Positions 2,246 to 20,124 of a stretch of DNA of 49,038 nt are shown here, piece by piece. This DNA is from Candidatus Flemingiibacterium sp. (lineage in GTDB: Bacteria; Bacillota; Clostridia; Oscillospirales; CAG-272): assembly GCA_045579105.1 (NCBI GenBank), contig JAZNLM010000004.1, forward strand, positions 1 to 49,038. The letters run 5' to 3'. Both the position numbers and the translations under genes were made by a program. Within the stretch, counting starts at the first letter, position 1. Every line of letters begins with the position of its first letter. The notes under the pieces are model-generated. The model made no database searches. It was not told where the DNA came from and saw only the letters and a list, made by a program, of their open reading frames with translations.

Positions 2246-4285
2246 TTAAATCTTAAGCATTTCTGCATCAGTATTGGTTAGACTGGTCATAGTGTTCTTA
2301 AGGTTTTCCCTGGTGTTTACCGTTTCTGGAGTACAGTACGTAGGAACAACCTTTATAAGTGCCTCTTTTACTACATCATCATCGTCTGTAGCAAGCGCTG
2401 TTCTAAGGATATCGAGTCTTTCGTTTAATTCTTCTAATGGGAGAGGAGTGTCACGCTCTATGAATATCATACTGTTTTCAGTCTTATCAAGCTCTTCAGT
2501 GCGAATGAGCAACTCTTCATAAAGCTTTTCGCCAGGACGAAGACCGGTTTCAACGATATCAATATCGCGGTAAGGCTCGAATCCGCCAAGGCGTATCATC
2601 GTTTCTGCAAGCTCTAAAATATGTATCGGCTTCCCCATGTCGAGAACAAAAAGTTCACCGTTTTTTGCCATAGCTCCTGACTGAAGCACAAGCTGGCTTG
2701 CCTCTGGAATGGTCATAAAATATCGTATGATACGCTTATCTGTTATAGTAACCGGGCCACCATTCATTATCTGACGCTTGAAAAGTGGAACGACCGATGC
2801 CGCACTTCCGAGAACGTTTCCGAATCTAGTTGCGCTGAACGTAGTGGATGTACCCGTACGACTGTGGCTTTGTACAATCATCTCGCAGAAGCGTTTTGTA
2901 GCGCCCATCACGTTAGTTGGATTAACCGCCTTGTCGGTGGATACCATCATAACTCTCTCTACGCCGTATTTTTCGGAAAGCTCAACAACGTTGAGCGTGC
3001 CAAATATGTTGTTCTTTACAGCCTCACAGCAGTTGTGCTCCATAAGCGGAACATGCTTGTGCGCAGCTACGTGAAGAACTACGTTTGGATTGTGTGAGAA
3101 AAAAACCTTTTCCAAACCGTTCACATCGCAAACCGAAACAATCTCAACGCACACATTAAGTTTCTCCCCGTATGCCATACGAAGTTCCTGCTGGATATCA
3201 TACGCACCATTTTCGCAGATATCAAGTATAATGAGCTTTTGAGGTTCCATTCTTGCTATCTGACGACAAAGTTCGCTACCAATAGATCCGCCACCACCGG
3301 TTATGAGAACCGCTTTTCCCTTATAGTATGCATTGGTACGCTCACCATTAACCTGAACAGGCTTACGGAATAAAAGCTCCTCAATATCAAACTCGCGCAT
3401 ATGACGTTTCCCATTAGTGGTAGTCTGCATAGTGGGATAGTCGTAAACCTTAATCTTGCAGCCGGTCTTTTTGTAAAACTCGTAGAGTTCTTTTATTCTC
3501 TTGGGATTAACTCTCGGCAGTGCAAAAACAATTTCCTGAATACCCTTATCCGCGAGTACTTTTTCAATATCTTCTTCACCCGAAATTATCGGAAGATCAA
3601 ATATCTGACGTCCTATTTTAGATTTATCCTTATCAATAAAACAGCACGGTATGTATCCCGAACGAGGATTTTTTATAAGTTCCTGTGCCAGCATGACACC
3701 AACCTGACCCGCACCAACTATTGCAATCTTTATCTTATTGTTAACCTTCTGTTTGTCTTCTTCCTTGTTAACATTTTCACTTTCAAAGGAAAGTCCGCTG
3801 ATAAATCCCATAAACGAACGAAGAAATTTTGCATGCTTTCTGTCTGCATTTTTTGCAGATTCATAAAGAAGCTGATACATCATTCGCATTGCAACAGCAA
3901 GTAAGAGGCTAAAAGATATTATAGAAAACGCGCGGACAAATGTGATTCTTTGTATTGGAAGAATAATCTGAAGTACAAGGTAGAGTACACCGGCAAAAAA
4001 GTCCGATATGATAAGCCTGATATACGCCATAGGATAACCATAGCGCCATATTTGCCTATAAACTCCGCAACCAGATCTGCACGCCCATACACAAACAAAG
4101 GTAAGCGCCAAATGCAAAAAAAACGGAACCGCGCCCAATGCACTTTTACTGCTCGGATAAAAACCAAGCATCAGTATGTTTACTATTAAAAGAAGAATAA
4201 GGTCATATACCTGGAGCGGGAGATGGCGTTTTCTGCGTGGCTTCGCAGATGCCATCTCGGGATGTTCGCCAGAAATATTATTCAT
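2246..4285 (-). CDS. capD: CapD/PglF-type UDP-GlcNAc 4,6-dehydratase (polysaccharide biosynthesis)
   Basis: 4 N-terminal TMs, GAGQVG, ITGGGGSIGSEL, AAHKHVP, STDKAVNPTNVMGATKR, RFGNVLGS, GLRPGEKLYEEL. Confidence 0.93.
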   Translation of the reverse strand: MNNISGEHPEMASAKPRRKRHLPLQVYDLILLLIVNILMLGFYPSSKSALGAVPFFLHLALTFVCVWACRSGCGVYRQIWRYGYPMAYIRLIISDFFAGVLYLVLQIILPIQRITFVRAFSIISFSLLLAVAMRMMYQLLYESAKNADRKHAKFLRSFMGFISGLSFESENVNKEEDKQKVNNKIKIAIVGAGQVGVMLAQELIKNPRSGYIPCCFIDKDKSKIGRQIFDLPIISGEEDIEKVLADKGIQEIVFALPRVNPKRIKELYEFYKKTGCKIKVYDYPTMQTTTNGKRHMREFDIEELLFRKPVQVNGERTNAYYKGKAVLITGGGGSIGSELCRQIARMEPQKLIILDICENGAYDIQQELRMAYGEKLNVCVEIVSVCDVNGLEKVFFSHNPNVVLHVAAHKHVPLMEHNCCEAVKNNIFGTLNVVELSEKYGVERVMMVSTDKAVNPTNVMGATKRFCEMIVQSHSRTGTSTTFSATRFGNVLGSAASVVPLFKRQIMNGGPVTITDKRIIRYFMTIPEASQLVLQSGAMAKNGELFVLDMGKPIHILELAETMIRLGGFEPYRDIDIVETGLRPGEKLYEELLIRTEELDKTENSMIFIERDTPLPLEELNERLDILRTALATDDDDVVKEALIKVVPTYCTPETVNTRENLKNTMTSLTNTDAEMLKI

Positions 4286-4293
4286 TCGTTTAA

Positions 4294-5277
4294 TTACTCC
4301 TCAATTTTATAGAAAAGATCTATCACAGTTTTTTGTGCTGACGCCTCATCAACGTAATATTCAACGTACTGATCGGTTTTTACAGCTTCACCAGCAAGAG
4401 TTAGTATGTCACCGTGTGAATACGTCTGCAGTCGCTCGGCAAGCACCGAAAGCTGATTGGCCGTAAGATCAGATACTACGTATTCGCTAACATCGACAAG
4501 CGTTTTAAGAGCATTATCAAGGTCATTATCTACGCATTGCTTTACAAAAGCGGTGATATATTGGCGCTGACGTTCCATACGTTCGAGGTTACTCGTGGTT
4601 GCCGCCGCACTTCTGTAGCGCACGAATTTGAGAGCATTATCGCCATTAAGTGTAACTGTAGCACCCCTGGTAAATTCTTCGCCTATATCAGTAAGATCAT
4701 GCTCAAGTGTTACGGTAACTCCGCCCACACTATCGTTAATTTTCGGTATTGCATCCATTGTGAATGAAATATAATGGTTGATCTTTACGCTGTAAAGCAG
4801 ATTTTCAACCGCCGACACCGTATTACGGCACTGCAATTTTCCACTTCCACCGTACGTATGAGCAAGTGCAAGCTGAGCAACGTACGTGCCGTATTTGTTT
4901 CCGTTATCATCTATCTGCGTGATATCGGTCATAGTATCTCGGTTAATATGAAGTACGCTAAAGGAATGATCGAGCTTGTCGATAATTAAAAGCGCAATAA
5001 AGTCCGCCTGAAGTGAATCGGCACGGGAATTATCCGGGGTTGTTATCGAGTCGATACCCATAACAAGTACACTCTCTTTGTTTTCATCAAGAGTGTAAAG
5101 ACTTCCCTTATAATATAGTTGCGACTTTCCCGTATTCGTATAATTCAGTGAGTCAGGTGACTCATCCATGCGGTTAAAAATCTTTTCGGCAAGTCGAAAA
5201 ATAGTGATCAGGGACACAACAAACACGAGAAAAAACAACACGATTACTATTCCTTTAGTAAGTTTTTTCCTATCCAT
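4294..5277 (-). CDS. LCP (LytR-CpsA-Psr) family protein
   Basis: N-terminal TM, LVMGID, QAD, INRDTM, DSVGGVTV, ALKFVRYR, RMERQRQY. Confidence 0.9.
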   Translation of the reverse strand: MDRKKLTKGIVIVLFFLVFVVSLITIFRLAEKIFNRMDESPDSLNYTNTGKSQLYYKGSLYTLDENKESVLVMGIDSITTPDNSRADSLQADFIALLIIDKLDHSFSVLHINRDTMTDITQIDDNGNKYGTYVAQLALAHTYGGSGKLQCRNTVSAVENLLYSVKINHYISFTMDAIPKINDSVGGVTVTLEHDLTDIGEEFTRGATVTLNGDNALKFVRYRSAAATTSNLERMERQRQYITAFVKQCVDNDLDNALKTLVDVSEYVVSDLTANQLSVLAERLQTYSHGDILTLAGEAVKTDQYVEYYVDEASAQKTVIDLFYKIEE

Positions 5278-5320
5278 TTTGTATCCGCCTTTAATTTTAT
5301 TATTACTTAACTAAAACCGA

Positions 5321-6010
5321 TTACTTAGCAGATGCCTTTCTCAACTTAATAGCGCAAAGGATCGCAAGTGCCGCAAAGAATACAGCACCGAATATTGCAG
5401 GTGCGAAATAAGTGGGAACACCCGTCTGAGGCGAGTCGTGATCGCATTCGGGATCAGGACAACCATCAAGAACAATAGCAAATGCCGCCATAGAAGTTGC
5501 GGTAATAGTGATAACACCGTTCTCATCTATAGTGTAGTCAACTATCTCCATATGGTGATCCGAATATGACTCTGTTATAATAAGGAAAAGGTCATCTGCA
5601 TCTATGCCCTGAAGTTTGATTTTAAAGGTAATCTCTTTACCCGTTTCTGCATCGCTTCCAAGCTCGCTTAAGTAACGCACGTCAAAGATATCGCTTATTA
5701 CCGCGTGCTCAATAGGTGCGCCGGAAGTAAAACTTTCCCAAACTGCTTCGAAATCTTTTACAATTTGAGTCAACTCATTATCGTTAAGCTTTTCTTTAGC
5801 ATCACGAAGGCTTTCATCGATATCGATATGAAGGTCAATAATATCATCATAAAGATGAGCAATAGGCGTAATTATGAGATCGTCGTCGCCCTCAACAAGT
5901 TCGGGACCATCCTTACGCTCCACGCTGGGCGTAAATTGTACTGCCGCTGCAGTTATACTAAAAACCATAGCGAACGCCATAAAAAATGTCAAAATACGTA
6001 ATGCTTTCAT
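5321..6010 (-). CDS. secreted acidic cell-wall-anchored protein with SPQTG sorting signal
   Basis: signal peptide ending AAA, D/E-rich body, C-terminal SPQTG + hydrophobic TM + KLRKASAK tail. Confidence 0.8.
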   Translation of the reverse strand: MKALRILTFFMAFAMVFSITAAAVQFTPSVERKDGPELVEGDDDLIITPIAHLYDDIIDLHIDIDESLRDAKEKLNDNELTQIVKDFEAVWESFTSGAPIEHAVISDIFDVRYLSELGSDAETGKEITFKIKLQGIDADDLFLIITESYSDHHMEIVDYTIDENGVITITATSMAAFAIVLDGCPDPECDHDSPQTGVPTYFAPAIFGAVFFAALAILCAIKLRKASAK

Positions 6011-6041
6011 TGTGTAGTATCTCCTTACAATAAATTATATA

Positions 6042-6935
6042 TCAGTTGGAAGCATTCCCAACATCATCATTTTTCAAATCGTCCTCAAAGACCGCCATAA
6101 CAAGATATCGTCTTGTGGTATCTTCGTTAAGGCAAACAGAAAGTATTATAACTCGGTCACCAACGCGCGGAAAGGAATCTTTATCAAAGTTCGCTCCGAT
6201 TTCCCTTACATGTTTTACCTCGTTAAAGAAGCGAGTGTACCAATATTTAACCGAGAAATCATACGTATCAAGCAAATGTGCTTTGCTGAACGGAACCGCG
6301 GCAAAAACTTTATAATGACGCACTTCATCGGGAAGATAAATTACTATGTCATTATGCTCGTCAAATGATACTGGATCCGAGTAGGTTCTTTGAAGCTGAC
6401 CGAACATAGTTCCCGAGCGCATCGTGTGTCCATATATCACCGTAACGGGGTCGTTGAAATCGCGGCTATTGTAGGTTGCTTCCGTAAACAGAGAGCCGCC
6501 TATATACCATTTCCCATTATATGCGGTGTTTAAATATTTTTTGTCGTTACTTTGACTTTGCAGCACGGGGTAATCTATTTTAGTGTCTTCAATCTCTATC
6601 CACGCGTGTATGTCGGGGTTAACCTGCCACAGCGTGTCAAAATCAAGAAGTCCCTGTGTATTCGACGTATCTTCGATAGGATCGATTACAGGAAGCGTAT
6701 CTGCGCCGTCTGTCGTGTCTTTTGTGTCAGTCGTGTGCGACGTTTCAAACTGCTTTATCGAGTCTCTCAAAGCTTCAAAAGCATCGTCATCATCGCGGGT
6801 AAGCATCATTTGATAGATAAGGGCTAAACATATGCACGCACACACACAGACAAGGCAAATACACAGCAAAATTATATATTTTATTTTCGAGTTGCTATCC
6901 GTATTACCTCTCATAAATACAGCCGTAGCTTCCAC
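6042..6935 (-). CDS. srtB: class B sortase
   Basis: N-terminal TM, NPDIHAWI, IDYPVLQ, IYGHTMRSGTMFGQL (His), ILSVC (Cys), RRYLV (Arg). Confidence 0.88.
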   Translation of the reverse strand: MEATAVFMRGNTDSNSKIKYIILLCICLVCVCACICLALIYQMMLTRDDDDAFEALRDSIKQFETSHTTDTKDTTDGADTLPVIDPIEDTSNTQGLLDFDTLWQVNPDIHAWIEIEDTKIDYPVLQSQSNDKKYLNTAYNGKWYIGGSLFTEATYNSRDFNDPVTVIYGHTMRSGTMFGQLQRTYSDPVSFDEHNDIVIYLPDEVRHYKVFAAVPFSKAHLLDTYDFSVKYWYTRFFNEVKHVREIGANFDKDSFPRVGDRVIILSVCLNEDTTRRYLVMAVFEDDLKNDDVGNASN

Positions 6936-7003
6936 ATTGTGGAAACTTTCCTTCCATAGGCATTTACAGCCCGTTTTGAAACGTAAAACTTACACTGTCA
7001 GCT

Positions 7004-7744
7004 CTAAAATCCCAATAGGCTTCGCGCATCGTCCATCATAAATTCAATTGCATCCTCACCCAAGCGTTTCTTTATAATGTTGAGAGCAGCTCCGATATTC
7101 GGTGTACGGTCAACTAAATTGTGACAGTCTGAACCAAGCAAATGAATAAATCCCTTTTTAAAAAACTTTAAGGCCTTGCGAGATGTACGCTTTCCTATAA
7201 AAAAGTCCGCATTAGATTGCATTAGAATACCGTTTTCCATAAGCTCGTTTATAACATCATGCCGTTGTGCAAAAAGATACCGTTCCACATGTGCGATTAC
7301 CACTTGACAGCACGGTCGCCCGTTTAGTTCAAGCAAATCGTCCACCATACGCGTGGTCCACACCTGCGCTGGCATCTCTACAAGTATACAGTTGCTATCC
7401 CCGAGCTTCAGTTCGGGATAGTCCGCCATACACACGAGCCCATCAAAATATTCTATCTCTGCACCCACAATAAGCTTAATGTCAGAAATATCATCTTCCA
7501 TGGCGTATGCTTCGCAAAGCGCATCAAATGCATGATTCCTTCGCTTGATAAAGCTTTGGGGATTATCAACCTGCGGGTAAAAATGCGGCGTAAGCACAAC
7601 AAACCCAACATTATCCTCTGCCAAAGTACGTATCATATGCATACTCTGCTCTACAGAGCAACTTCCGTCGTCAACCCCCTGCAGGATATGCGTATGAAAG
7701 TCAACATATCTTCGTTCGGACGCACGAAGTACACTATCACTCAT
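7004..7744 (-). CDS. cpsB: CpsB/CapC PHP-family tyrosine-protein phosphatase
   Basis: DFHTHIL..VDDGS, TPHF, GAEI, IAHVERY, LGSDCHN. Confidence 0.9.
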   Translation of the reverse strand: MSDSVLRASERRYVDFHTHILQGVDDGSCSVEQSMHMIRTLAEDNVGFVVLTPHFYPQVDNPQSFIKRRNHAFDALCEAYAMEDDISDIKLIVGAEIEYFDGLVCMADYPELKLGDSNCILVEMPAQVWTTRMVDDLLELNGRPCCQVVIAHVERYLFAQRHDVINELMENGILMQSNADFFIGKRTSRKALKFFKKGFIHLLGSDCHNLVDRTPNIGAALNIIKKRLGEDAIEFMMDDARSLLGF

Positions 7745-8715
7745 CAGACGTCCCTATCTTCCGTATGCTTGGTTTCGTGATGGCTTTTCTGGTCATGTTT
7801 TTCATAATAACGGTGTCCATGCGACGAATAATACCCATGATGTGAATAATGACCTCTTGAATAATAGCCCCTTGAATAATAGCCGTGGTGTCCAGAATAA
7901 CCTCCATGGTATCCGAATTTATTGATGGAATATTTCTTGTATTTATACTTACCATACTTTGATGCATTCTCGACGCAAGTCATTATAAGTCCGATTATTC
8001 TTGCCCCATTGAGATCAAGCTGCATTATCGTATCGTCAAGCATACGCTTATCCGCATACGCTTGGCGTACTACAACTATAATTCCGTCAGTAAACTGCGA
8101 AACAATAAGTGCATCAGCAACCTCTGTTATAGGCGGCAAATCGATTACTATATACTCATACTCCTCCCGTAAATCACCAAGCATAAGTTCAAATCGCTTA
8201 GACGCCAGAAGCTCAGTTGGGTTCGGAGGTATATCCCCACAGGTAATAACATGAAGTCCGTCCTGTGAAGCTGAGTGCTGAATCATAGAAAAATCGTTGG
8301 TTTTGCTAACAAGCATGTTGCTGAGTCCAGGCGAATTATGAACTCCAAGAGATTTTGCTACCTTGGAAAGACGCATATCGGCATCGATAAGCAGTGTTTT
8401 CTTACCCGCCTTCATTAAGTCATATGCAAGGTTCATAGATGTAGTACTCTTTCCCTCATGTGCCAACGAACTCGTTACACCAATAACGTGGCACTCGCCC
8501 TCATCCGCAAAACTGAACATTACATTTGTGCGAAGACGTTTGTGTGCTTCCGTCACAGCAAACGAGCGGTTCTTACCAATCACTGCATAATTCTGATCTT
8601 CTCCGAAAATATCCTTTTTCTTCTTATTCTTATTAGCAGCTTGTTTTTTCTTATTAGTAGTTTGTTTTTCAGTTCCGGTCATACTCCCGGCTACAGATTT
8701 ATTCTTCTTAAACAT
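7744..8715 (-). CDS. cpsD: CpsD/CapB BY-kinase with extended Tyr/His/Gly tail
   Basis: RLRTNV, Walker A HEGKST, LIDADMR, PPNPTELL, IVIDLPP, C-terminal Tyr cluster. Confidence 0.92.
   Translation of the reverse strand: MFKKNKSVAGSMTGTEKQTTNKKKQAANKNKKKKDIFGEDQNYAVIGKNRSFAVTEAHKRLRTNVMFSFADEGECHVIGVTSSLAHEGKSTTSMNLAYDLMKAGKKTLLIDADMRLSKVAKSLGVHNSPGLSNMLVSKTNDFSMIQHSASQDGLHVITCGDIPPNPTELLASKRFELMLGDLREEYEYIVIDLPPITEVADALIVSQFTDGIIVVVRQAYADKRMLDDTIMQLDLNGARIIGLIMTCVENASKYGKYKYKKYSINKFGYHGGYSGHHGYYSRGYYSRGHYSHHGYYSSHGHRYYEKHDQKSHHETKHTEDRDV
7802..7915 (-). repeat. degenerate 15-18 bp coding tandem repeat (G-[YH]-Y-S-x)
   Basis: GGCTATTATTCAAG twice at 15-bp period plus degenerate copies encoding GYYSRGYYSRGHYSHHGYYSSHG. 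Confidence 0.75.
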
Positions 8716-9584
8716 TACTCATCGCCACCATCCTGTACCTGCATTTTTTGGTAAGCTTCCATGCGATATTTTATGTAATCGCGTTTGTAATATCTTCGCT
8801 TGTAACGATATTTATACTTATTTTTTGATTTATACCCGGAATTTTGCTTGCCGTCCAACGGCATATATGCCTCTGGAATTACTGCAAGTATAGGCAAATT
8901 AAATCTATGTTTTAAGTACTCGACATCGCGCACTGTATTGTTTAATAGGTCTTGTATAATAATTAGTCCGCAACTCACCACTGCTCCTATGAGCAAACCT
9001 AAGATTCCATACCTCGCATTTGGCGGCGACGAAGGTGCCGCCGGTCGAACTGCGCGATCAACCAGTCTAACCGAGCTTCCGTCAACCACATCAGCTATTC
9101 TGTCTGGAAGTATCTCAACAAGCGTATCAACGATAAGCAACGCATCATCCCGATCTGCGCAGGTAGCGCTTATTTTGAATATATCCGTATTGTCGACAGA
9201 AGATGCAGAAATGATACTTTTGAGCTGTTGATATGTATACTCTCCTTCGAGGTTTGCCTTTTCTATCGCCGCTTCAAGGGTGGTTCTAGTCTTAAGAATT
9301 ACCACATACGTGTTAAGAAGGCTCTTGGCCGCAGAAATCTGCCCGGAGCTTATAGTTATCGGTACATCCCCCACCTTTGCAGCGCTGTTGTTTACATAAA
9401 GCATCGCAGTAGCTGTATAAGTCGGTGTAATCGTAAATGTTGATGTCACAAACGCAATCGCTCCGCAAAGCGCCATTGATATCAGTATCAACCACAACTT
9501 GCTTATAAGCAATCGGATCAGGTCTAATATATTTATCTCCGCAATGCTGCCATCAATTATTTCATTCATTGAATTTCGGTTCAT
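8715..9584 (-). CDS. cpsC: CpsC/YveK (Wzz/Etk N-terminal) polysaccharide copolymerase
   Basis: EINILDL, two TMs, PTYTATAMLYV, P..PSSP, LPILAVIP; Tyr/Lys/Arg-rich tail. Confidence 0.88.
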   Translation of the reverse strand: MNRNSMNEIIDGSIAEINILDLIRLLISKLWLILISMALCGAIAFVTSTFTITPTYTATAMLYVNNSAAKVGDVPITISSGQISAAKSLLNTYVVILKTRTTLEAAIEKANLEGEYTYQQLKSIISASSVDNTDIFKISATCADRDDALLIVDTLVEILPDRIADVVDGSSVRLVDRAVRPAAPSSPPNARYGILGLLIGAVVSCGLIIIQDLLNNTVRDVEYLKHRFNLPILAVIPEAYMPLDGKQNSGYKSKNKYKYRYKRRYYKRDYIKYRMEAYQKMQVQDGGDE

Positions 9585-9610
9585 TGTTTATCCCCCCTGT
9601 GTCTACCTTT

Positions 9611-10090
9611 CTAATCATTTGGAGCTATATGCTTTAATATATGCTTTAATTTGAAGATTACCTTGTGACACAGATGACGCACACCTCGACTGTTATGCCA
9701 AAACCTACAATAAAGCTTATATGTAAAGGAAGATGTGGAAATTGTTTTTCCTTCTCTTGAAAAGGCGATCGCGACGGCTATTATCTGATCATGACGCACT
9801 CCGTGCTCAAGTTTAAACTGTCTGTCACCTATACAAGAATATGTTTCACCGACATTTACCACGCGATGGAGAACATACTGTCCGTCGTCGCGCACATAGA
9901 GCGGAAGATCATATTTCTTTAATTGTTTCGGGGGAGCCGAGAGTGTTACCGTATCCTTGCCTTGTCTAAGCATCGGAAGCATACTGATACCACGCGGATA
10001 AAACTCCACCGTTCCACCTGATGCTATCTGCTCTCGTATGAGCGGCATTAGCGCATCAAGCGCTATATTTTTATTCGTTGATAAAGCCAT
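9611..10090 (-). CDS. S24/S26-family peptidase (RiPP-cassette type)
   Basis: GISMLPML (Ser), YVLHRV (His), CIGD; probable start MALSTN at 10090 overlapping the PqqD gene end. Confidence 0.8.
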   Translation of the reverse strand: MALSTNKNIALDALMPLIREQIASGGTVEFYPRGISMLPMLRQGKDTVTLSAPPKQLKKYDLPLYVRDDGQYVLHRVVNVGETYSCIGDRQFKLEHGVRHDQIIAVAIAFSREGKTISTSSFTYKLYCRFWHNSRGVRHLCHKVIFKLKHILKHIAPND

Positions 10091-10334
10091 GTTTTTTAAG
10101 ACTTTCCACAAATTTTTCGACAGCCGCTCTTGCAGTATCCGCGTCAACATCGTATTCAGAAGTAAGCGCGGTAACAAGACCATCTACATCTGTCTCCTCA
10201 CCGAGAGCCATCCACAGCGTCTTTCCTGTATCATTAAGAGTTATCATGCCGTTAAAATTAAGGTCTGCTCCAACGGGTACAACCACACACGAGCCAGCAA
10301 CATCTCTCAAAACAAATCCATCCTTGATCTTCAT
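10071..10334 (-). CDS. PqqD family / RiPP recognition element protein
   Basis: 87 aa; FVLRDVAG..VVVP, ITLNDTG..LW, L..EYDVD, FVESL...G.I. Confidence 0.9.
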   Translation of the reverse strand: MKIKDGFVLRDVAGSCVVVPVGADLNFNGMITLNDTGKTLWMALGEETDVDGLVTALTSEYDVDADTARAAVEKFVESLKKHGFINE

Positions 10335-10365
10335 AATTATACCAATTCCTTTCGCTGATGTACAT

Positions 10366-11079
10366 TTATTTTTTAGCCTGTGACATTACCTTATGTGAAA
10401 GTATGGCCGCTTGGGGATCCATATTACATTCCATACGCCACACCGGCACCTTTTCAAGCAACTTGTCAATCAGTTCAAGCATATTCATCATACGCTGAGG
10501 CTCCCTCGGGCGTGCAGTCTGTTCAAGTATAGCATGCGCAGCCTTAGGACCACCGAACGTCTCTATCTTGTTTTCTTGACCGCGGCTAAGCACACAAATT
10601 CCGCCGAGCTGCACTTTGATATTAGAGCTGATATCATGCTTTCCGCTCCAGGGGGTTCCATAAGCATACCACTGTCCTTCAACAAGACGGATGGCGGGCT
10701 TGTCATCGTTGAGCATTTTAACTTTATCTTCACCGAAGACCTTTTGCCACAGTTTCGTATGCGTTGATTTTCCCGTACCACAGGGTGCGGAAAAGAGATA
10801 CGCCTTACCATCCATCACAACAGCGGACGCATGAATCATCATACCGTCATGGTCTATAAGTTGGCGGTAAAACGAACCACCGGTGGTCAGATACTCGCAA
10901 TCCTCATCTGATAGATGCGGTGCGGTCTTTTTCAAAGATTGGTAATCTGAAGCTATTTGTATGTCTGGAACTATTCCATCAGCAGCATCATCTATAAGAT
11001 AAGGTTTAGCCTGCTCGACGATACGTCCGAAAGAATTCATCGCGACTACAAGATCTGCGATACGGTAATATTGTGTCAT
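10366..11079 (-). CDS. HPr-kinase-like P-loop kinase (PadeK/ScmC-like)
   Basis: IHASAV, FSAPCGTGKSTH Walker A, LNDD, YGTPWSGK. Confidence 0.85.
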   Translation of the reverse strand: MTQYYRIADLVVAMNSFGRIVEQAKPYLIDDAADGIVPDIQIASDYQSLKKTAPHLSDEDCEYLTTGGSFYRQLIDHDGMMIHASAVVMDGKAYLFSAPCGTGKSTHTKLWQKVFGEDKVKMLNDDKPAIRLVEGQWYAYGTPWSGKHDISSNIKVQLGGICVLSRGQENKIETFGGPKAAHAILEQTARPREPQRMMNMLELIDKLLEKVPVWRMECNMDPQAAILSHKVMSQAKK

Positions 11080-11210
11080 TGATGTATAACCTTCGTTTTA
11101 TATTATTCGGATTACGTGATAACTATCAGAAATCTCTACTTTTTAGTCATCATACATAATATTTTCCGGTTGGGAGTGGTGTCCTCTGGTTCATAATATT
11201 TATTGCAATA

Positions 11211-11285
11211 TCATCCGCCGTTCAAACCGCATTTCAGGCGCGTCGGATGGATATAATACGAGTCATATGAACTTAAAATGGGCAT
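11211..11285 (-). CDS. possible 24-aa small ORF (candidate precursor/leader peptide)
   Basis: MPILSSYDSYYIHPTRLKCGLNGG after GGTGG, between the promoter and the kinase gene. Confidence 0.2.
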   Translation of the reverse strand: MPILSSYDSYYIHPTRLKCGLNGG

Positions 11286-11315
11286 AAATCCACCAACCTA
11301 TGTTTCCACTTATAT

Positions 11316-11344
11316 ATTATAGCATATAAAAAGAGGAATTGGAA
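11316..11344 (-). promoter_or_regulatory. sigmaA promoter for kinase-RRE-EPS operon
   Basis: TTCCAA-N17-TATAAT with TG extension. Confidence 0.55.
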
Positions 11345-11729
11345 GCGATTTGTTAAAAAAAACATCCAAAATATTAACCAATTTTTTTGTTCACAATTTG
11401 TGCAATAAGCACTATTATTTGATTTTAACTGTCGCAATTTATTTAACCGTAGTAAATCATTTAACTGTCGTAAAATCAAGTAAAAAAGCCAGCTTGTGAA
11501 AAAATGTATTTTGAGGGATATTAGCAAAAGTAGTTAGGTGGTTGTACGTGCTCCACCGGTCATCCAAGGAAAGATCATGATATCCACCTGTAGGTTAAGC
11601 GAAATTATTTCGGAAGAAGCTCTCCCCCAAAAAAAATATAATCTCACACGCAAAAACAACCTCTCTAACGAGAAGCTGTTTTACCGGAATTTACATGTTT
11701 TTATTCTTACAAAAAATTGAAATCAAGTA

Positions 11730-12200
11730 CTACGAAATTAAGTATTCGCTGATACCCGAATCTCGGCAATACTTTGCAAAGTGAGTGAAGAGATAAATCA
11801 TCTCGTCCTCGGCGCTCATTTTATGCTCAAGTGAAGCGTTTGAAACCGTTTTTGCAAGCTGCCAACCCTCTCCGGAATATGCGTAATAATCCCTGTTGTA
11901 CGACGGTATAAGTCTGTCGTGGAGCTCGATATGGGTAGAGCCCTTCTGCCAATTATATTCGTGGTCGCTCTCAACACCTTCTGTGTATCCGAGGGAAATC
12001 ATAAGCGGACGTATACGGTCATCGGTAGTCTGCCGTTCTCCGACAAGTATCTCGCGGCGCACGCGTGCAAACGCTTGGCGCATAGCTTCACACGTATTAT
12101 CGACGCTGCAGTTCAGCGCGTCATAGTAGGCAAGTGCAGTCGCGCCGTGTGCTTTGGCGGCAGCAAACTAAGAGGAAGCAGGTGCGCGTGAGTGTCGGTC
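11730..12200 (-). pseudogene. nucleotidyltransferase (NTP_transf_5/PadeN-like) pseudogene
   Basis: AKAHGATALAYY N-terminal part joined to IRPLM.SLGY..ESDHEY.W..IELH.RL..YLFTHFAK; central LKG/GD.DIL catalytic segment and C-terminus missing; start approximate. Confidence 0.7.
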
Positions 12201-12238
12201 ATGTACGCATCCACCAAAAAAGCAATAATACTCTTGGA

Positions 12239-12266
12239 ATTATAGCATATTTTTTGCGATTTTCAA
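12239..12266 (-). promoter_or_regulatory. sigmaA promoter (leftward)
   Basis: TTGAAA-N16-TATAAT with TG extension. Confidence 0.6.
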
Positions 12267-12319
12267 TAGTTTTTTTAATAAAATTTTTATTTTTTTGCAC
12301 TTTAAGCGCAAAACAATAC

Positions 12320-12348
12320 TTGACATAGGCATTCCGGTGTGATATAAT
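12320..12348 (+). promoter_or_regulatory. consensus sigmaA promoter (rightward)
   Basis: TTGACA-N17-TATAAT with TG extension. Confidence 0.8.
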
Positions 12349-12516
12349 AATATGGTAAAATTGTATATTATTTCTACAGTTTCAAAAGCTATAAAAGTCG
12401 GGCAATAGTGCATAACGAACCTCTTTACAAAGAAAAATCATCCCTCGACAATGTACTCAAAAGTTAAAACATTACCATATTAGCCCGGATACGAAAAATC
12501 ATACGGAGTATTTTTA

Positions 12517-12863
12517 ATAACAGTGTAAGTTCTTATAACAACGATGTATCAAACGGATACATCCAAATATATCGAAATAAATTTGCAAACCAATGCAGTT
12601 ATATCAAACCGAACGGAAAGGTGTGCCTTTAAAAACATGATTTTGATGGCAACCGTTTCCGTTTCCCAATAACAGATACAACATGATCAAGCATCAACAA
12701 AAACATATCACCTACACACTCCAATACGGATATAATTGTGTTTGCTGATGATGTCATTAAGTTCATCGACGTCTACGGAAAAGTAATCGTAGAGGCACTT
12801 GAAGCTATCCCGGATGCAGATACGATAAAATTTTACAGTAAACGGATCGTCCCCCAGAAATAG
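12517..12863 (+). pseudogene. GT2/GT-A glycosyltransferase remnant
   Basis: VLITTMYQTD..INLQTNAVISN and DIIVFADDVIKF..PDADTIKF fragments; start codon lost (ATA) and in-frame TAA at 12526. Confidence 0.65.
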
Positions 12864-12899
12864 CCCTTTCTACAAGCATCCCAACTCCTGCCGCAAAGC

Positions 12900-13300
12900 C
12901 TCAAAATTGAGTTTAACACCCGTTACATCAACATAATGTGTTCGCACGGCTCGTCTATTCCGCCTTGGTTTGACAAAATTAAAGCAGCCCCTTCTTTCAA
13001 TCACCGATGGCACAATGACGCGCGTCATTATGTCGCCGACGGGGCGGTTGATCTCGTATTGTTTGCATTTGAACACGGCAACTTGAGCAACATTCTCGTT
13101 CAAAAAGCGCCGCCTGTACAATACAGCCATAGGCTGAAGCAGTATGTGATCCGTTCAAATATGATAAATCCAACATAAAGGTTATCTGTGTCCGTCACAG
13201 CGAAAAGATGGTGGGACTCTGAAAACAGATCGTTTTTAGGCACGAAGTTTTGAGCCTTTCGCACCACAGGTGCGAACTCCTTTACGAAAACCATCACAGA
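12900..13300 (+). pseudogene. CapE/FnlA dehydratase remnant (possibly with a CapF tail)
   Basis: TRYINIMCSHGS, AVDLVLFAFEHG..ILVQKAP, VICVRHSEKM resemble the CapE C-terminal half, with frameshifts; lies just before capG. Confidence 0.7.
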
Positions 13301-13337
13301 CCTTATATAATCATTTTAGAAAGGAATAATCGTATTT

Positions 13338-14522
13338 ATGAACATAAAGCTCGATTACACCGATATAAAATTCAGAAACGACGGCAGACTTAAGCTACTT
13401 ATAATCGTGGGTACACGTCCCGAGATAATCCGCCTTTCGGCCGTTATAAACAAGTGCCGTACATATTTTGACACTATCCTCGCACACACCGGTCAAAACT
13501 ATGACTATAACTTAAACGGCGTGTTTTTCAAGGATCTGAAGCTTGACGCGCCCGAGGTATATATGGACGCGGTCGGCGACGACCTAGGGGCAACTGTGGG
13601 CAACATCATTAACTGCTCGTACAAGCTTATGAGCCAGATTCATCCCGATGCGCTTCTTATTCTCGGTGACACCAACTCCTGTCTTTCCGCTATTGCTGCA
13701 AAAAGACTGCACATTCCGATATTCCATATGGAAGCCCGCAACCGTTGCAAGGATGAATGTCTGCCCGAGGAAACCAATCGTCGTATTGTCGACATAATCT
13801 CAGACGTTAACCTCGCATACTCCGAGCACGCGCGTAAGTATCTCCATGAATGCGGCCTTCCCAAGGAGCGTACGTACGTTACCGGCTCACCTATGGCGGA
13901 GGTACTTCACGCTAATCTTGACGAGATAAAAGCAAGCGATATTCTCACTCGCCTCGGACTTGAGAAGAAGCAATACATTCTTCTCTCCGCGCACCGTGAG
14001 GAAAACATCGACACCGAAAAGAATTTCACAAGTCTTTTCACAGCTATCAATAAGATGGCGGAAAAGTACGACATGCCAATCCTTTATTCCTGCCATCCGC
14101 GCTCGAAGAACCGTCTTGCGGCAAGCGGATTTGTGCTTGATAAGCGCGTGTTTTGCCACGAGCCACTCGGCTTTCACGATTATAACGCGCTTCAAATGAA
14201 CGCGTTTGCTGTAGTTTCCGACAGCGGCACACTTCCAGAGGAAAGCTCATTCTTCACAAGCGTGGGCAATCCCTTCCCTGCAGTATGTATACGCACATCC
14301 ACAGAGCGCCCGGAAGCGCTCGATAAGGCCTGCTTCGTTCTCGCAGGCATCGATGAGGATAGTCTTCTACGTGCTCTTGAATGTGCCGTTTTAATGAACG
14401 AGAATGGCGAGTACGGTATACCTGTCCCTGATTACATTGAGGAAAATGTTTCGACTAAGGTCGTTAAGATAATCCAATCTTACACAGGTGTCGTTAACAA
14501 AATGGTTTGGAGAAAATTCTGA
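13338..14522 (+). CDS. capG: UDP-N-acetylhexosamine 2-epimerase, CapG/FnlC type
   Basis: GTRPEIIRL, HTGQNYDY, LGDTNS, PEETNR, HREEN, SDSGTLPEE, TERPE. Confidence 0.9.
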   Translation: MNIKLDYTDIKFRNDGRLKLLIIVGTRPEIIRLSAVINKCRTYFDTILAHTGQNYDYNLNGVFFKDLKLDAPEVYMDAVGDDLGATVGNIINCSYKLMSQIHPDALLILGDTNSCLSAIAAKRLHIPIFHMEARNRCKDECLPEETNRRIVDIISDVNLAYSEHARKYLHECGLPKERTYVTGSPMAEVLHANLDEIKASDILTRLGLEKKQYILLSAHREENIDTEKNFTSLFTAINKMAEKYDMPILYSCHPRSKNRLAASGFVLDKRVFCHEPLGFHDYNALQMNAFAVVSDSGTLPEESSFFTSVGNPFPAVCIRTSTERPEALDKACFVLAGIDEDSLLRALECAVLMNENGEYGIPVPDYIEENVSTKVVKIIQSYTGVVNKMVWRKF

Positions 14523-14548: not shown

Positions 14549-15403
14549 ATGGAGCAAGGCGTAAATAAATATCATACACATATAAGCGCAAAGCGCTCGT
14601 GGTTTGACTTAAAGCTACGTGAGCTTTGGCGTTATCGCGACCTTATTTTGCTTTTCACAAAGCGCAATTTTATACTTGTATACAAGCAGACCCTACTCGG
14701 TCCGTCGTGGATACTCTTGCAACCGCTTATGACTACGCTTATTTACGCGTTTGTTTTCGGCGGTATTGCAGGCATTTCCACGGACGGCGCTCCGAAATTG
14801 CTTTTCTATCTGGGCGGCACTGCTCTTTGGGGCTTTTTCTCTGCTTGTCTTACGAAAACTTCAACAACATTTTCAGCCAACGCCCGAATTTTCGGCAGGG
14901 TTTATTTTCCAAGACTTGTCACTCCAATATCAACTGTTTTCTCAGGAGCAATCAATTTTGCCGTTCAGTTTTTACTGTTCACAGGATTTTGGGTGTATTA
15001 CGTAATAGTCGGTGAAGTCATACCGAATTATATCGGGATTATACTCCTTCCATTCATACTTTTGTACCTCGGTGTACTCGGAATGGGACTTGGTCTTATA
15101 ATCACCGCGCTCACAACGAAATACCGTGACCTTGCTATGCTCGTGACCTACGGTGTACAGCTTTGGATGTATGTAACACCTATCGTTTATCCCGCATCAA
15201 CGGTAGCAGGCAGTAAATTATATTCACTGATTATGTTAAACCCAGTCACCTGTGCTGTTGAAACGTTCCGTTGGACGTTCCTCGGCGTTGGTGAGCTTAA
15301 TCTTACGTATTGGCTGATTTCCATTAGTATAACAGCCGTGGTCGCTTTTTTAGGAGTGATAATTTTCAACAGAGTTGAAAAGACGTTTATGGATACGATT
15401 TAG
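14549..15403 (+). CDS. wzm: polysaccharide ABC transporter permease (Wzm/TagG)
   Basis: YKQTLLG..W, RVYFPR, KYRDL, YVTPIVYP, LNP; 6 TMs; RBS AGGAGG. Confidence 0.92.
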   Translation: MEQGVNKYHTHISAKRSWFDLKLRELWRYRDLILLFTKRNFILVYKQTLLGPSWILLQPLMTTLIYAFVFGGIAGISTDGAPKLLFYLGGTALWGFFSACLTKTSTTFSANARIFGRVYFPRLVTPISTVFSGAINFAVQFLLFTGFWVYYVIVGEVIPNYIGIILLPFILLYLGVLGMGLGLIITALTTKYRDLAMLVTYGVQLWMYVTPIVYPASTVAGSKLYSLIMLNPVTCAVETFRWTFLGVGELNLTYWLISISITAVVAFLGVIIFNRVEKTFMDTI

Positions 15404-15420
15404 TACTGAGGCGGAAAGGG

Positions 15421-16251
15421 ATGGTCATATATATGAGCGAAACATCAATAAAAATCCAAGGTATAAAAAAAGAATACCGCCTCGGTCAGATAACCGTAAA
15501 CACTTTGAAGGCTGACCTTCAGTCAAAGTGGGCGAAAATACGAAAAAAAGATGACCCAAACACTAAAATACGGAAAGGTAAGAGCGTTGCACCTACGCGT
15601 TTTATGGCGCTCGACGGTATTGACCTTACGATAAATAAAGGTGAGGTTATCGGTCTTATCGGTGGAAACGGTGCGGGAAAATCCACACTACTAAAAATAC
15701 TTGCGCGCATCACTGCCCCCACCGAAGGTTCTATCGACATATACGGACGAATTTCTTCTATGCTTGAGGTCGGCACAGGCTTTAATACCGAAATGACAGG
15801 ACGAGAGAATATATACTTAAACGGAGCAATTCTCGGTATGACCAAAGCAGAGATTGATTCAAAGCTTGAGGATATCATCGACTTTTCCGAAATACGCGAG
15901 TTTATCGACACTCCTGCAAAGCGCTATTCATCAGGTATGTATGTAAAACTCGCCTTCTCCATTTCAGCACATCTTGACAGCGAGATAATGATAATGGACG
16001 AAGTACTCGCCGTCGGGGATATGGCGTTCCAGAAAAAATGCCTTGATAGGATGTACAGTGCCGCAAAGAGAGATGGACGCACAGTAATTTATGTGTCGCA
16101 CAATATGGATACAATCCGAAATCTTTGCGACAGATGTGTGGTTCTTAGCAAAGGCAAAATAATTTTTGACGGTGACGTTGAAGGCGGTATCGAAGAATAC
16201 ACCAAGATTAACACGAATAAAAACAGCATAAAAAAATCGGCAGAGAGTTAA
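15421..16251 (+). CDS. wzt: polysaccharide ABC transporter ATPase (Wzt/TagH), no C-terminal CBD
   Basis: GGNGAGKSTLLK, GRENI, YSSGM, IMDEVLAVGD, VSH. Confidence 0.92.
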   Translation: MVIYMSETSIKIQGIKKEYRLGQITVNTLKADLQSKWAKIRKKDDPNTKIRKGKSVAPTRFMALDGIDLTINKGEVIGLIGGNGAGKSTLLKILARITAPTEGSIDIYGRISSMLEVGTGFNTEMTGRENIYLNGAILGMTKAEIDSKLEDIIDFSEIREFIDTPAKRYSSGMYVKLAFSISAHLDSEIMIMDEVLAVGDMAFQKKCLDRMYSAAKRDGRTVIYVSHNMDTIRNLCDRCVVLSKGKIIFDGDVEGGIEEYTKINTNKNSIKKSAES

Positions 16252-16973: not shown

Positions 16974-17096
16974 GGTAATACCTCCTGAATATTTTATTCA
17001 ACTAAAGTATATCACAAAATTCATACTTTGTCAATATCTTCCCGAAATTCAATTCACAGTTTAAAACAAATTGTGTCTAAATATTTCGATTATTGC

Positions 17097-17125
17097 TTGA
17101 AAACAGTATTTCTTTATGCTATAAT
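17097..17125 (+). promoter_or_regulatory. sigmaA promoter
   Basis: TTGAAA-N17-TATAAT with TG extension. Confidence 0.65.
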
Positions 17126-17186
17126 ACTCTTTGAAGAATTTGCCGTTTACGGCGTTCCAATACACACAGAGGGGGAGAAAAACATT

Positions 17187-18410
17187 ATGTTAAAAATAAT
17201 AGTTATCCTACTTTTGATACTAGGTTGTGCCTTTAAAACCGTACTTAATCTCGTAAAATCACGCAGCGCGAACAATCCAATACCCGGGAGTGTATCAGAC
17301 GTTTACGACTCTCAAACATACTTAAAATGGAAAAAATACAGTGAGGAGAACTGTAAGCTCAATACTGTATTCACGCTGATTTCGGGTGCCGCAACCCTCG
17401 CGCTTCTCTGCACGGATGCATACAGCGCATTTGCCGCGCTTTTCCCCGACGGCTTTTTTATGCAGCTTCTGGCTGTGGTCATTTTAGAAAGCGTTGTAAG
17501 CACGGTAATCGGAGTTTTTGAAAGCTATTTTTCGGTAATGGTAATCGAGCAGAAATACGGTTTTAACCGTACGAGCACAAAAACCTTCGTTATTGACAGA
17601 ATACGCTCCACCCTGCTCGGATTTGGTCTTACACTCGGACTTGTTTGCCTGTTGGCAGGATTGCACATCGCTATGGGCGATTACCTTATCATACTTTTCG
17701 CAGCTACACTCTTTGTCATCAGCCTATTCATCTCGTTCCTCTATCCCGTTTTCAGCCGTATGGGCAACAAGTTCACGCCCCTTGAAGACGGAGAACTCAA
17801 GGACCGCCTTATGGCGCTTCTCACAAAGCACGGCTACAAGGTGAAATCCATTTCCGTAATGGATGCGTCTCGCCGTACGACAAAGCTCAACGCATATTTC
17901 ACGGGATTTGGCAAAATGAAAACCATAGTACTCTATGACAATCTTGTAAACGCTATGGACACGGACGAAATATGCGCGGTATTTGCTCATGAGCTTGGAC
18001 ACGGTATACATAAGGACGTGCTCAAGATGCAGACGATGAACATATTCAATCTGCTTATCATGGCGGTGATTGCGTGGATATCAATTTCTGTAATCGGACT
18101 TCACAGCGCGTTCGGATTTGACGGTATAAACTACGGCTTTGCATACATACTTATGAGTATCGCGCTCGAAATAATCTCTCCCGTTACGGGAATGCTAATG
18201 AACTCATACAGCCGCCACGCGGAATACCGCGCCGACAAACAGGCATTCCTCGAAGGCTACGGTGCATCGCTCATCACCGCACTCAAAAAGCTCGCACGCG
18301 AGAATTTCGCGCACCTTGCTCCCTCAAAGCTCAACGTGGTCATGGAATACAGTCATCCCCCGCTTGCAAGCCGTATTGAGTCTATACAAGCTCAAGAAAA
18401 GAATAAGTAA
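17187..18410 (+). CDS. M48 family (Ste24-like) membrane zinc metalloprotease
   Basis: EQKYGFNR, NAYFTGFG, AHELGH, EYRAD, YSHPPL..RI; start at ATG 17187 after GGGGAG. Confidence 0.9.
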   Translation: MLKIIVILLLILGCAFKTVLNLVKSRSANNPIPGSVSDVYDSQTYLKWKKYSEENCKLNTVFTLISGAATLALLCTDAYSAFAALFPDGFFMQLLAVVILESVVSTVIGVFESYFSVMVIEQKYGFNRTSTKTFVIDRIRSTLLGFGLTLGLVCLLAGLHIAMGDYLIILFAATLFVISLFISFLYPVFSRMGNKFTPLEDGELKDRLMALLTKHGYKVKSISVMDASRRTTKLNAYFTGFGKMKTIVLYDNLVNAMDTDEICAVFAHELGHGIHKDVLKMQTMNIFNLLIMAVIAWISISVIGLHSAFGFDGINYGFAYILMSIALEIISPVTGMLMNSYSRHAEYRADKQAFLEGYGASLITALKKLARENFAHLAPSKLNVVMEYSHPPLASRIESIQAQEKNK

Positions 18411-19458: not shown

Positions 19459-20124
19459 ATGAAGCTTTTAATTAACGCACTCACAAAATTTCTGTTTGGA
19501 TTACTGCTCGTCGGAATATTGTTGTTTCTTCCCGCGGGAACTTTTGCATACCCGAATGCGTGGCTTTTCATCGCGCTTTTATTTATTCCAATGCTATTGC
19601 TTGGTATAATTTTGCTCCTAAAATCCCCCGATCTTCTTAGAAAGCGACTCGATACCAAGGAAGAGGAAAGCACTCAAAAAGGTGTGGTCGCCGTTTCTGC
19701 ACTGCTCTTTATGGCAGGTTTTATAGTGGCAGGACTTGACTTTCGTTTTGGCTGGTCAAACGTTTCCATGTGCTTAGTAATAACCGCATCTGCTGTACTT
19801 ATAATCTCCTACGCACTTTACGCCGAAGTTATGCGTGAAAACGCATATCTTTCCCGTACTGTAAAGGTAGAAAAAGATCAAAAAATTGTCGACACAGGAC
19901 TTTACGGAATAGTCCGTCACCCGATGTACGCCGCGACTGTATGGCTGTTTCTCTCAATCCCTGTGGTTCTCGGATCGTGGTGGGCACTGCTCTGCTTTTT
20001 GCCGTACATCATTGCTATAGCTGTTCGGATAGTCAACGAAGAAAAAGTTCTCAAAACCGGTCTTGACGGCTATGAAGACTATAAAAAACGCGTAAAATAC
20101 CGCATTATTCCGTTTATATGGTGA
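19459..20124 (+). CDS. isoprenylcysteine carboxyl methyltransferase (ICMT/PEMT) family membrane protein
   Basis: TGLYGIVRHPMY, RIVNEEKVL, YKKRVKYR. Confidence 0.88.
   Translation: MKLLINALTKFLFGLLLVGILLFLPAGTFAYPNAWLFIALLFIPMLLLGIILLLKSPDLLRKRLDTKEEESTQKGVVAVSALLFMAGFIVAGLDFRFGWSNVSMCLVITASAVLIISYALYAEVMRENAYLSRTVKVEKDQKIVDTGLYGIVRHPMYAATVWLFLSIPVVLGSWWALLCFLPYIIAIAVRIVNEEKVLKTGLDGYEDYKKRVKYRIIPFIW

Follow-up and report, generated by a model that had tools for sequence, protein, structure and literature searches.

The closest described relatives of the genes considered here are the clusters for linear polyphosphorylated peptides (LPPs), reported by Popov et al. (Nat Commun 2026; PMC13381572). 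Their core genes encode a SipW-like peptidase (LppS), a discrete RiPP recognition element (RRE; RiPPs being peptides made by the ribosome and modified after translation) named LppB, an HprK-like kinase (LppK), an NTP transferase (LppN) and an MsbA-like pump (LppD), and the precursors bear the leader YxxPxVLxHQxIxFETxxS. The type cluster, from Paenibacillus alginolyticus DSM5050, has the order lppA-K-B-S-D-N. LPP clusters are cyclase-free by definition and often lie within capsule loci. We compared these clusters with a minus-strand gene run in a 49,038-nucleotide (nt) stretch of DNA from Candidatus Flemingiibacterium sp. (contig JAZNLM010000004.1, assembly GCA_045579105.1), in which genes resembling lppK, lppB and lppS precede capsule-regulatory, sortase and cell-wall genes; "the window" denotes that whole stretch.

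In a heterologous host, as described in PMC13381572, LppK adds several phosphates to core Ser3 and LppS, aided by LppB, cleaves after Thr-1, with no detectable effect of LppN. The final product and its function were unknown to the authors, who considered that surrounding polysaccharide genes could add modifications. They reported LPP clusters embedded in capsular polysaccharide loci of Bacilli, at a prevalence of 80 in 9173 genomes, raised a biofilm role as a possibility, and noted that lppB and an exopolysaccharide (EPS) gene of P. alginolyticus increase together in stationary phase. The main text of that report does not contain the words sortase, SLH, S-layer, Clostridia or Oscillospir-; its supplementary cluster lists may include members from Clostridia.

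A probable LPP-type module opens the gene run

The window is one entire contig (C4) of a 1.68-Mb metagenome-assembled genome that is 87% complete (G000). A first-pass annotation had described a tightly packed minus-strand run of genes for an HPr-kinase-like kinase, a PqqD-family RRE, an S26 peptidase, CpsC, CpsD, CpsB, sortase B (SrtB), an SPQTG surface protein, an LCP enzyme and CapD, with a nucleotidyltransferase remnant upstream. Open reading frame (ORF) listing together with Pfam and NCBIfam scans recovered every one of these genes, all on the minus strand. We read the run as a composite operon of known parts whose 5' end is probably a reduced LPP-family module comprising lppK, lppB, lppS and a dead lppN.

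Three intact ORFs make up this module. The lppK-like gene (10366..11079, minus strand) encodes a 237-residue HprK-fold kinase with the P-loop APCGTGKSTH. Its sequence gives faint family matches (weak NCBIfam matches to ScmC and HprK_rel_A), and an AlphaFold2 model built from an alignment of 46 relatives (predicted local distance difference test score, pLDDT, 96.8) has HprK/P and PEPCK as its best Foldseek matches, at E about 1e-5. Across the 46 relatives 14 columns are invariant, and the window protein keeps all 14. The adjoining lppB-like gene (10071..10334, minus strand) encodes a discrete 87-residue RRE of the PqqD family (PF05402, 2e-18). A profile of this RRE family finds the lasso B1 proteins TbiB1 (5e-10) and TfuB1, as well as 9x90 PbaB1 (6e-7) and 9x8z LppB (2e-6), both of which are RREs from the LPP paper. 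How the RRE of this family binds its leader has been solved structurally (9x8z). The lppS-like gene (9611..10090, minus strand), whose start was moved to an internal ATG after alignment with relatives, overlaps the 3' end of the PqqD gene by 20 nt and encodes a 159-residue S26B peptidase without a transmembrane segment. Its residues G34, S36, M37, D61, L74, H75, G88 and D89 are invariant in 31 relatives, forming GxSM, LH(R) and GD(N) boxes, in our reading the Ser/His/Asp pattern seen in SipW/SEC11-type signal peptidases. PDB matches of the final profile, which was rebuilt free of peptidase–nucleotidyltransferase fusions, span E 0.0017 to 0.03, with SEC11A (0.0017) and signal peptidase I (0.0044) among them. 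The kinase and the peptidase thus retain every family-invariant residue.

As judged from gene set, gene order and the type of leader found in relatives, the kinase-PqqD-S26 triple appears to belong to the LPP family, and the first-pass view of it as a RiPP maturation module fits this well. The HprK-like kinase, the discrete lasso-type RRE and the soluble SipW-like S26 peptidase stand in the identical order without a cyclase; relatives of the window add the MsbA-like pump, an NTP_transf_5 protein and a precursor with a YxxP leader; and the module sits in a capsule locus beside a tyrosine autokinase. The window differs from the published clusters in having only K-B-S intact, with N a remnant and neither A nor an adjacent D found, in its host, an Oscillospiraceae genome (Clostridia) as against the Bacilli of the genome mapping in PMC13381572, and in joining the module in one run to cpsCDB, srtB, the SPQTG protein and LCP genes.

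The first-pass annotation had set the cassette beside lasso-peptide clusters and suggested that it may be repurposed; with the LPP family in print since 2026 (PMC13381572), it is not a newly discovered repurposed lasso cluster. Paeninodin and pseudomycoidin lasso clusters do share with it an HprK-like kinase, a PqqD-type B1, NTP_transf_5, an ABC pump and a [Y/W]xxP leader motif. They differ in their macrolactam cyclase and transglutaminase-type B2, neither of which occurs in the window or next to the cassettes of 139 comparison loci (see below), and in leader removal, which an S26-type serine peptidase would carry out in the LPP-type cassette.

The window copy is reduced

The lppN remnant (11730..12083, minus strand) covers only positions 107-195 of the 249 in PF14907, and its tblastn match is limited to residues 187-275 of a 447-residue relative, at 56% identity, so that about 90 residues are left. 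A full-length NTP_transf_5 copy lies elsewhere in the same genome (C72:20979-22199), adjoining a protein whose N-terminus was read, without a family scan, as that of a DegT-type aminotransferase. The stretch 11080-13340, flanked by two divergent operons, contains gene fragments only: besides the remnant there is, on the plus strand, a CapD-like piece (12936-13178), and the approximately 650 nt separating the remnant from lppK hold no credible ORF. A strong divergent promoter-like pair is located at about 12.24-12.35 kb.

No LppD-type exporter gene adjoins the window cassette, the remainder of the genome not having been searched for one. The sole ABC genes called in the window, at 14549-16251 on the opposite strand, are paired and encode an ABC-2 permease and an ATPase. 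With no precursor found and no adjacent pump, the three enzymes either act on a substrate that is unassembled or unrecognised, or stand idle. K-B-S without D and N is nevertheless the commonest form of the cassette in the bacterial family (NTP_transf_5 in 9 and an ABC pump in 2 of 60 loci), and precursors are often unlinked, so the window copy may still work in trans.

Neither a lasso cyclase nor a transglutaminase B2 is present in the window, as the first-pass annotation had stated. Genome-wide, the single full Asn_synthase match lies on a different contig, 3.3 kb long, and is of AsnB type, its sequence starting MCGF; there is no Transglut_core3 match. Because the absence of a cyclase is the rule for the LPP family, the cyclase-free cassette does not reflect a local deletion.

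Distribution of the cassette among relatives

Of 200 genomes sampled from the same bacterial family, the Oscillospiraceae, 121 have a kinase homolog, a prevalence far above the 80 of 9173 reported for LPP clusters in Bacilli genomes (PMC13381572). For comparison of gene neighbourhoods we combined the best 60 kinase matches within the bacterial family, with up to 10 kb on each side, and the best 80 of at least 599 kinase matches among GTDB species genomes. Of the 140 loci fetched, one was a duplicate, leaving 139 comparison loci, whose ORFs were called crudely and labelled by profiles made from the window proteins.

Kinase, PqqD protein and peptidase form the conserved core of these loci (105 PqqD ORFs, and 88 peptidase ORFs plus 3 NTP_transf_5 fusions, in the 140 loci and the window), and complete relatives follow the published order lppA-K-B-S-D-N. 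An ABC exporter of 555-585 residues (PF00664 and PF00005) comes after the peptidase in 20 of the 139 loci, and NTP_transf_5 is found in 27. The three fusions, of about 500 residues, join the S26-like peptidase to NTP_transf_5 (L044:10758-12272, L054:10971-12512 and L140). Two groups of candidates were set aside: genes of about 555-610 residues after the peptidase, suspected as cyclases, proved by Pfam to be ABC exporters, and genes of about 290 residues upstream of the kinase, suspected as NTP_transf_5, are in fact SLH proteins or unrelated genes.

Small ORFs of 34-55 codons upstream of the kinase share the N-terminal consensus MKKxYxxPExExxxFxxxDxIxxS followed by a variable acidic tail. The conserved Thr-x-Ser at the end of the leader would hold both the cleavage site and the phosphorylated Ser. 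A precursor-like ORF is seen at E<1 in 39 of the 139 loci. Across the 200 family genomes the precursor profile matches 62, frequently in several unlinked copies, and 60 of these 62 are also kinase-positive by comparison of the lists by eye, against a base rate of 121 in 200. Five genomes (G160, G104, G099, G106 and G003) have 5-10 precursor-like small ORFs each, on different contigs and far from the kinase gene. Two genomes of the window's own genus (G071 and G148), at 3.0-3.5 Mb as compared with 1.68 Mb, have neither the kinase nor precursor-like ORFs.

Cyclases are missing from the neighbourhoods of relatives as well. For 133 neighbours upstream and 94 downstream, Pfam tallies show neither Asn_synthase nor a transglutaminase among families with at least two members; as the tallies hold the 25 commonest families, a lone cyclase among the 227 neighbours is not excluded by them alone. 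When AsnB was compared with every ORF of the 140 loci and of the window, there were two distant matches, and the one that was scanned has GATase domains only. By its own terms, the reading of the first-pass annotation would fail if homologous cassettes routinely carried a lasso cyclase and a precursor, both simply deleted here. This is the case for the precursor, which is routine in homologs and missing from the window; it is not the case for the cyclase, which the homologs do not carry.

Most neighbours of the cassette are unrelated housekeeping genes. Secreted proteins of 1340-3278 residues lie directly upstream of the kinase in nine loci (L007, L009, L011, L014, L017, L036, L047, L053 and, divergently, L012). 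Most have BspA-LRR, Flg_new, beta-helix, M26_N or subtilase domains and two have no Pfam match; the nine show no C-terminal tail common to them or to the precursors.

Capsule regulators recur beside the cassette

In the window, the peptidase gene is followed on the minus strand by cpsC (8715..9584; PF02706 7.9e-15, TIGR01006 1.2e-31), which encodes a Wzz-type chain-length regulator and kinase activator, by cpsD (7744..8715; TIGR01007 1.2e-50, above cut-off), a BY tyrosine autokinase with a YGKYKYKKY...YY-rich C-terminal tail, and by cpsB (7004..7744; PF19567 3.8e-41), a PHP-type phosphotyrosine phosphatase. In 22 of the 139 comparison loci cpsC or cpsD is no more than three genes away from the cassette, and in 29 it is present somewhere in the fetched stretch. 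The cps genes stand upstream or downstream of the cassette or amid its genes, in several distinct orders. The cpsD profile has one strong and two weak matches in the window's 1.68-Mb genome; so few matches put chance cps adjacency at about 1%, with the reservation that related genomes are not independent samples.

Linkage to the other envelope genes is of a different order. An LCP gene is found within three genes of the cassette in 3 of 139 loci and anywhere in the stretch in 11. SrtB and the SPQTG protein are within three genes in none, and each occurs anywhere in five (SrtB in L002, L003, L004, L011 and L066; the SPQTG protein in L002, L003, L004, L011 and, as a weak match without the motif, L012). 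All of these except L066 belong to the window's own clade, which makes the sortase link clade-specific. The window's order of K-B-S, cpsCDB, srtB, SPQTG protein and LCP is repeated in L002, L004 and L011, and in L003 as far as the contig end. Thus the envelope linkage proposed in the first-pass annotation holds for cpsC and cpsD, is weak for LCP and does not extend to SrtB and the SPQTG protein. The link to capsule regulators recurs and extends the observation made in Bacilli to Clostridia, whereas the sortase link is local.

In a further group of loci (L035, and L042 and L025 with the same cluster), cpsCDB and LCP genes are placed between lppB and an inverted lppS, and a phosphotransferase of the APH family of about 362 residues is encoded between cpsB and the LCP gene (L035:13371-14459).

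Surface proteins that repeat the precursor core

Second only to the ABC pump in recurrence beside the cassette is a secreted SLH-repeat protein of about 290-420 residues with a Pro/Thr-rich linker, present in 17 of the 139 loci. Eight loci have both an SLH protein and a precursor, and in three of the eight the SLH protein repeats the core of the precursor. In L086 a 9-mer of the precursor (7615-7743) is found identically at the C-terminus of the SLH protein (7936-9075); in L137 an identical 9-mer is shared by the precursor (7715-7837) and the SLH protein (9036-9923), 37 residues before the end of the latter; and in L002 the precursor (11786-11914) and the SLH protein (10721-11602) match at 9 of their final 10 residues, both ending in Ser. 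In 820 cross-locus controls the longest common string was 6 residues, reached in 3 controls. The SLH and precursor copies of the core differ at 4-5 synonymous codons, so that their identity has been preserved at the protein level and does not stem from a fresh DNA duplication. This hints, at the level of sequence, that one enzyme or partner may serve both the wall-tethered SLH tail and the secreted peptide. The core copy on SLH proteins is a side observation that may be new.

Sortase B, its candidate substrate and the remaining genes of the run

Downstream of cpsB the run continues with a class B sortase gene (6042..6935, minus strand; TIGR03064 2.7e-36 and 125 bits, below the 153.75 cut-off). 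All 15 PDB sequences matched by the protein at E<=0.001 (best 4y4q, 4.5e-22) are entries that we take to be sortase B-type, by molecule name, entry identity or likeness to such entries. Next lies the gene for a 229-residue surface protein (5321..6010, minus strand) with a signal peptide, SPQTG, a hydrophobic stretch and an RKASAK tail, a likely substrate of SrtB. By pattern it is the sole plausible sorting-signal protein of the window's genome, two other matches resembling non-coding frames. Its family comprises 32 members, the window's included, among 5.8 billion proteins, and in all 32 [SG]PxT[GA] precedes a hydrophobic stretch and a basic tail. The protein matches no Pfam family, and no PDB entry matches its model (pLDDT 80) at E<=0.001. 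A homolog in L012 (3972-4673) has a plain membrane anchor and no sorting motif, in a locus without SrtB, which fits a cognate enzyme-substrate pair; motif and SrtB seem to come and go together.

The substrate motif of Clostridioides difficile SrtB is (S/P)PxTG. The window shares with that species the pairing of a class B sortase with an SPxTG-type sorting signal; it differs in that the substrate belongs to a small lineage-restricted family without a fold match and in that the pair lies inside a cps regulatory operon. SrtB of C. difficile and its substrates have been described (PMC4155245, PMC5569036).

The LCP glycopolymer transferase gene (4294..5277, minus strand; PF03816 1.1e-23, and TIGR00350 above its cut-off) encodes a protein whose PDB matches include TagT/U/V, Cps2A and further LCP-family entries, and it is followed by a gene for a CapD-like membrane UDP-sugar 4,6-dehydratase (Polysacc_synt_2; 2246..4285, minus strand; PF02719 3.8e-114). 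In Actinomyces oris, LcpA glycosylates the sortase-anchored protein GspA (PMC6381275). Here too an LCP gene adjoins the gene for a putatively sortase-anchored protein; sortase class and phylum differ, and the likeness is one of gene adjacency alone. As in the Streptococcus pneumoniae CpsA-B-C-D module, genes for an LCP enzyme, a PHP phosphatase, a Wzz-like activator and a BY-kinase occur as a group in the window. Their order differs, being C-D-B ... LCP, with the genes for sortase and substrate interposed, and the window contains no gene for a glycosyltransferase, a flippase or a polymerase.

Gaps and overlaps between adjacent genes of the run range from -20 to +68 nt, which is compatible with a single operon, and one transcript across the run is plausible on this spacing. 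The best promoter-like site upstream (12239..12266, minus strand) reads TTGAAA-16-TATAAT with TG, an 11/12 match to consensus and nothing beyond that, and no convincing minus-strand terminator-like site lies between it (about 12.24 kb) and 4.3 kb.

Discussion

We consider the composite operon with a reduced LPP-family module at its 5' end to be the likely account of the gene run. By homology and gene order, the LPP steps established by experiment for a Paenibacillus member (PMC13381572) would take place in relatives of the window as well. In complete relatives, the RRE LppB would bind the YxxP leader of a small acidic precursor, LppK would phosphorylate the conserved Ser just past the leader, the soluble SipW-like LppS would remove the leader and the MsbA-like pump would export the product. 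The phospho-Ser peptide anticipated by the first-pass annotation is the product type of this family, as found experimentally in the Paenibacillus member. Going by family membership, CpsC, CpsD and CpsB would control polysaccharide assembly through tyrosine phosphorylation, SrtB would anchor the neighbouring SPQTG protein to peptidoglycan, the LCP enzyme would ligate glycopolymer to the wall, and the CapD-like enzyme would begin an amino-sugar pathway.

Several points weigh against this account. No lppA-type precursor was found in the window's genome, the best scores being E 0.3 (a 168-residue frame) and 1.8 in an assembly of 87% completeness; with the profile, the divergent precursors of L002 and L004, the closest relatives, themselves reach just E 0.02-0.08, so a similar precursor in the window's genome could escape detection. 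Leader spacing deviates from the published logo: from the conserved Thr to the conserved Ser the distance is two residues in these leaders, as against three in the logo. With the RRE profile, lasso B1 proteins such as TbiB1 (5e-10) do at least as well as LppB (2e-6), and the identity of the kinase and peptidase with LppK and LppS, drawn from fold, catalytic boxes and gene order, is no more than probable. The crude ORF caller undercounts PqqD and short overlapping genes, its overlap rule having dropped the window's own PqqD, and co-transcription of the run is inferred from spacing alone.

Signs of erosion around the module raise the possibility that K-B-S is a functionless leftover of a complete LPP cluster, brought before cpsC by a rearrangement accident that left gene fragments behind. 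The truncation of lppN to some 90 residues, the second, CapD-like fragment, the ORF-free 650 nt before lppK and the missing precursor all fit such decay. We regard it as unlikely, however, given that the three ORFs are intact with all family-invariant residues kept, that the bacterial family most commonly has K-B-S lacking D and N, and that precursors of relatives are often unlinked and multicopy elsewhere in the genome. The first-pass annotation proposed that a phospho-Ser/Thr peptide or protein may be an acceptor to which polysaccharide is ligated and which is displayed by sortase; in the form weighed here, ligation would be by the LCP enzyme or via the nucleotidyltransferase, and display through SrtB and the SPQTG protein. 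A single operon-like run does join K-B-S, cpsCDB, srtB, the SPQTG protein and LCP, in an order kept in the four relatives named above; LPP modules recur beside cpsC and cpsD; the LPP authors allow that surrounding polysaccharide genes could modify the peptide (PMC13381572); A. oris LcpA glycosylates a sortase-anchored protein (PMC6381275); and three relatives carry core copies on adjacent SLH proteins. Yet SrtB and the SPQTG protein accompany the cassette in five loci each and LCP comes within three genes of it in three, most cassettes lie amid unrelated housekeeping genes, and the window copy lacks a precursor and an adjoining LppD-type gene, its nucleotidyltransferase being dead. Leader profiles did not match the SPQTG protein in genome searches, and LCP enzymes and sortases act outside the membrane, a location for which the K-B-S enzymes have neither a signal peptide nor a transmembrane segment. 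Taken together, these findings make the displayed-glycan model very improbable. What stands of it is a cyclase-free, kinase-bearing RiPP module tied to capsule genes; the family was already known, the copy is reduced, and its links to sortase and LCP genes are not conserved.

That LPP modules repeatedly adjoin cpsC-cpsD suggests, from gene order, a common role in the cell envelope. That role could be regulatory, with LPP peptides controlling capsule or biofilm production, for example via the CpsCD tyrosine-kinase module, and having no structural part. The recurrence of the adjacency in several gene orders, the dedicated exporter of complete clusters, and the joint stationary-phase rise of lppB and an EPS gene in P. 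alginolyticus, where a biofilm role was raised (PMC13381572), would agree with signalling; no receptor or two-component system recurs among the neighbours, though, and the cassettes are mostly not near cps genes, and we think a signalling function rather improbable. To the same low degree we entertain the idea that LPP peptides are envelope components and not free antimicrobials, with modifying enzymes or a binding partner acting on both the secreted phosphopeptide and the SLH tail; in the window's clade, one operon with the sortase-anchored protein and LCP would then give peptide-linked or peptide-guided glycan decoration.

The LPP authors could note just a capsule-locus link in Bacilli (PMC13381572). 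Our comparison adds that LPP-type modules are very common in gut Oscillospiraceae, that the capsule-regulator link occurs in another bacterial class and in several gene orders, and that some clusters pair the peptide with a surface protein of the same sequence. High prevalence, cps link and SLH pairing together offer concrete handles on an envelope role of LPPs. The window itself holds a reduced copy of a known family, and conservation does not support a sortase-displayed glycan.

Additional features of the window

Outside the run, an M48 CAAX-prenyl-protease-like peptidase (17028-18410) is encoded near an ICMT/PEMT-family methyltransferase (19459-20124), a pair that resembles eukaryotic CAAX-processing enzymes.

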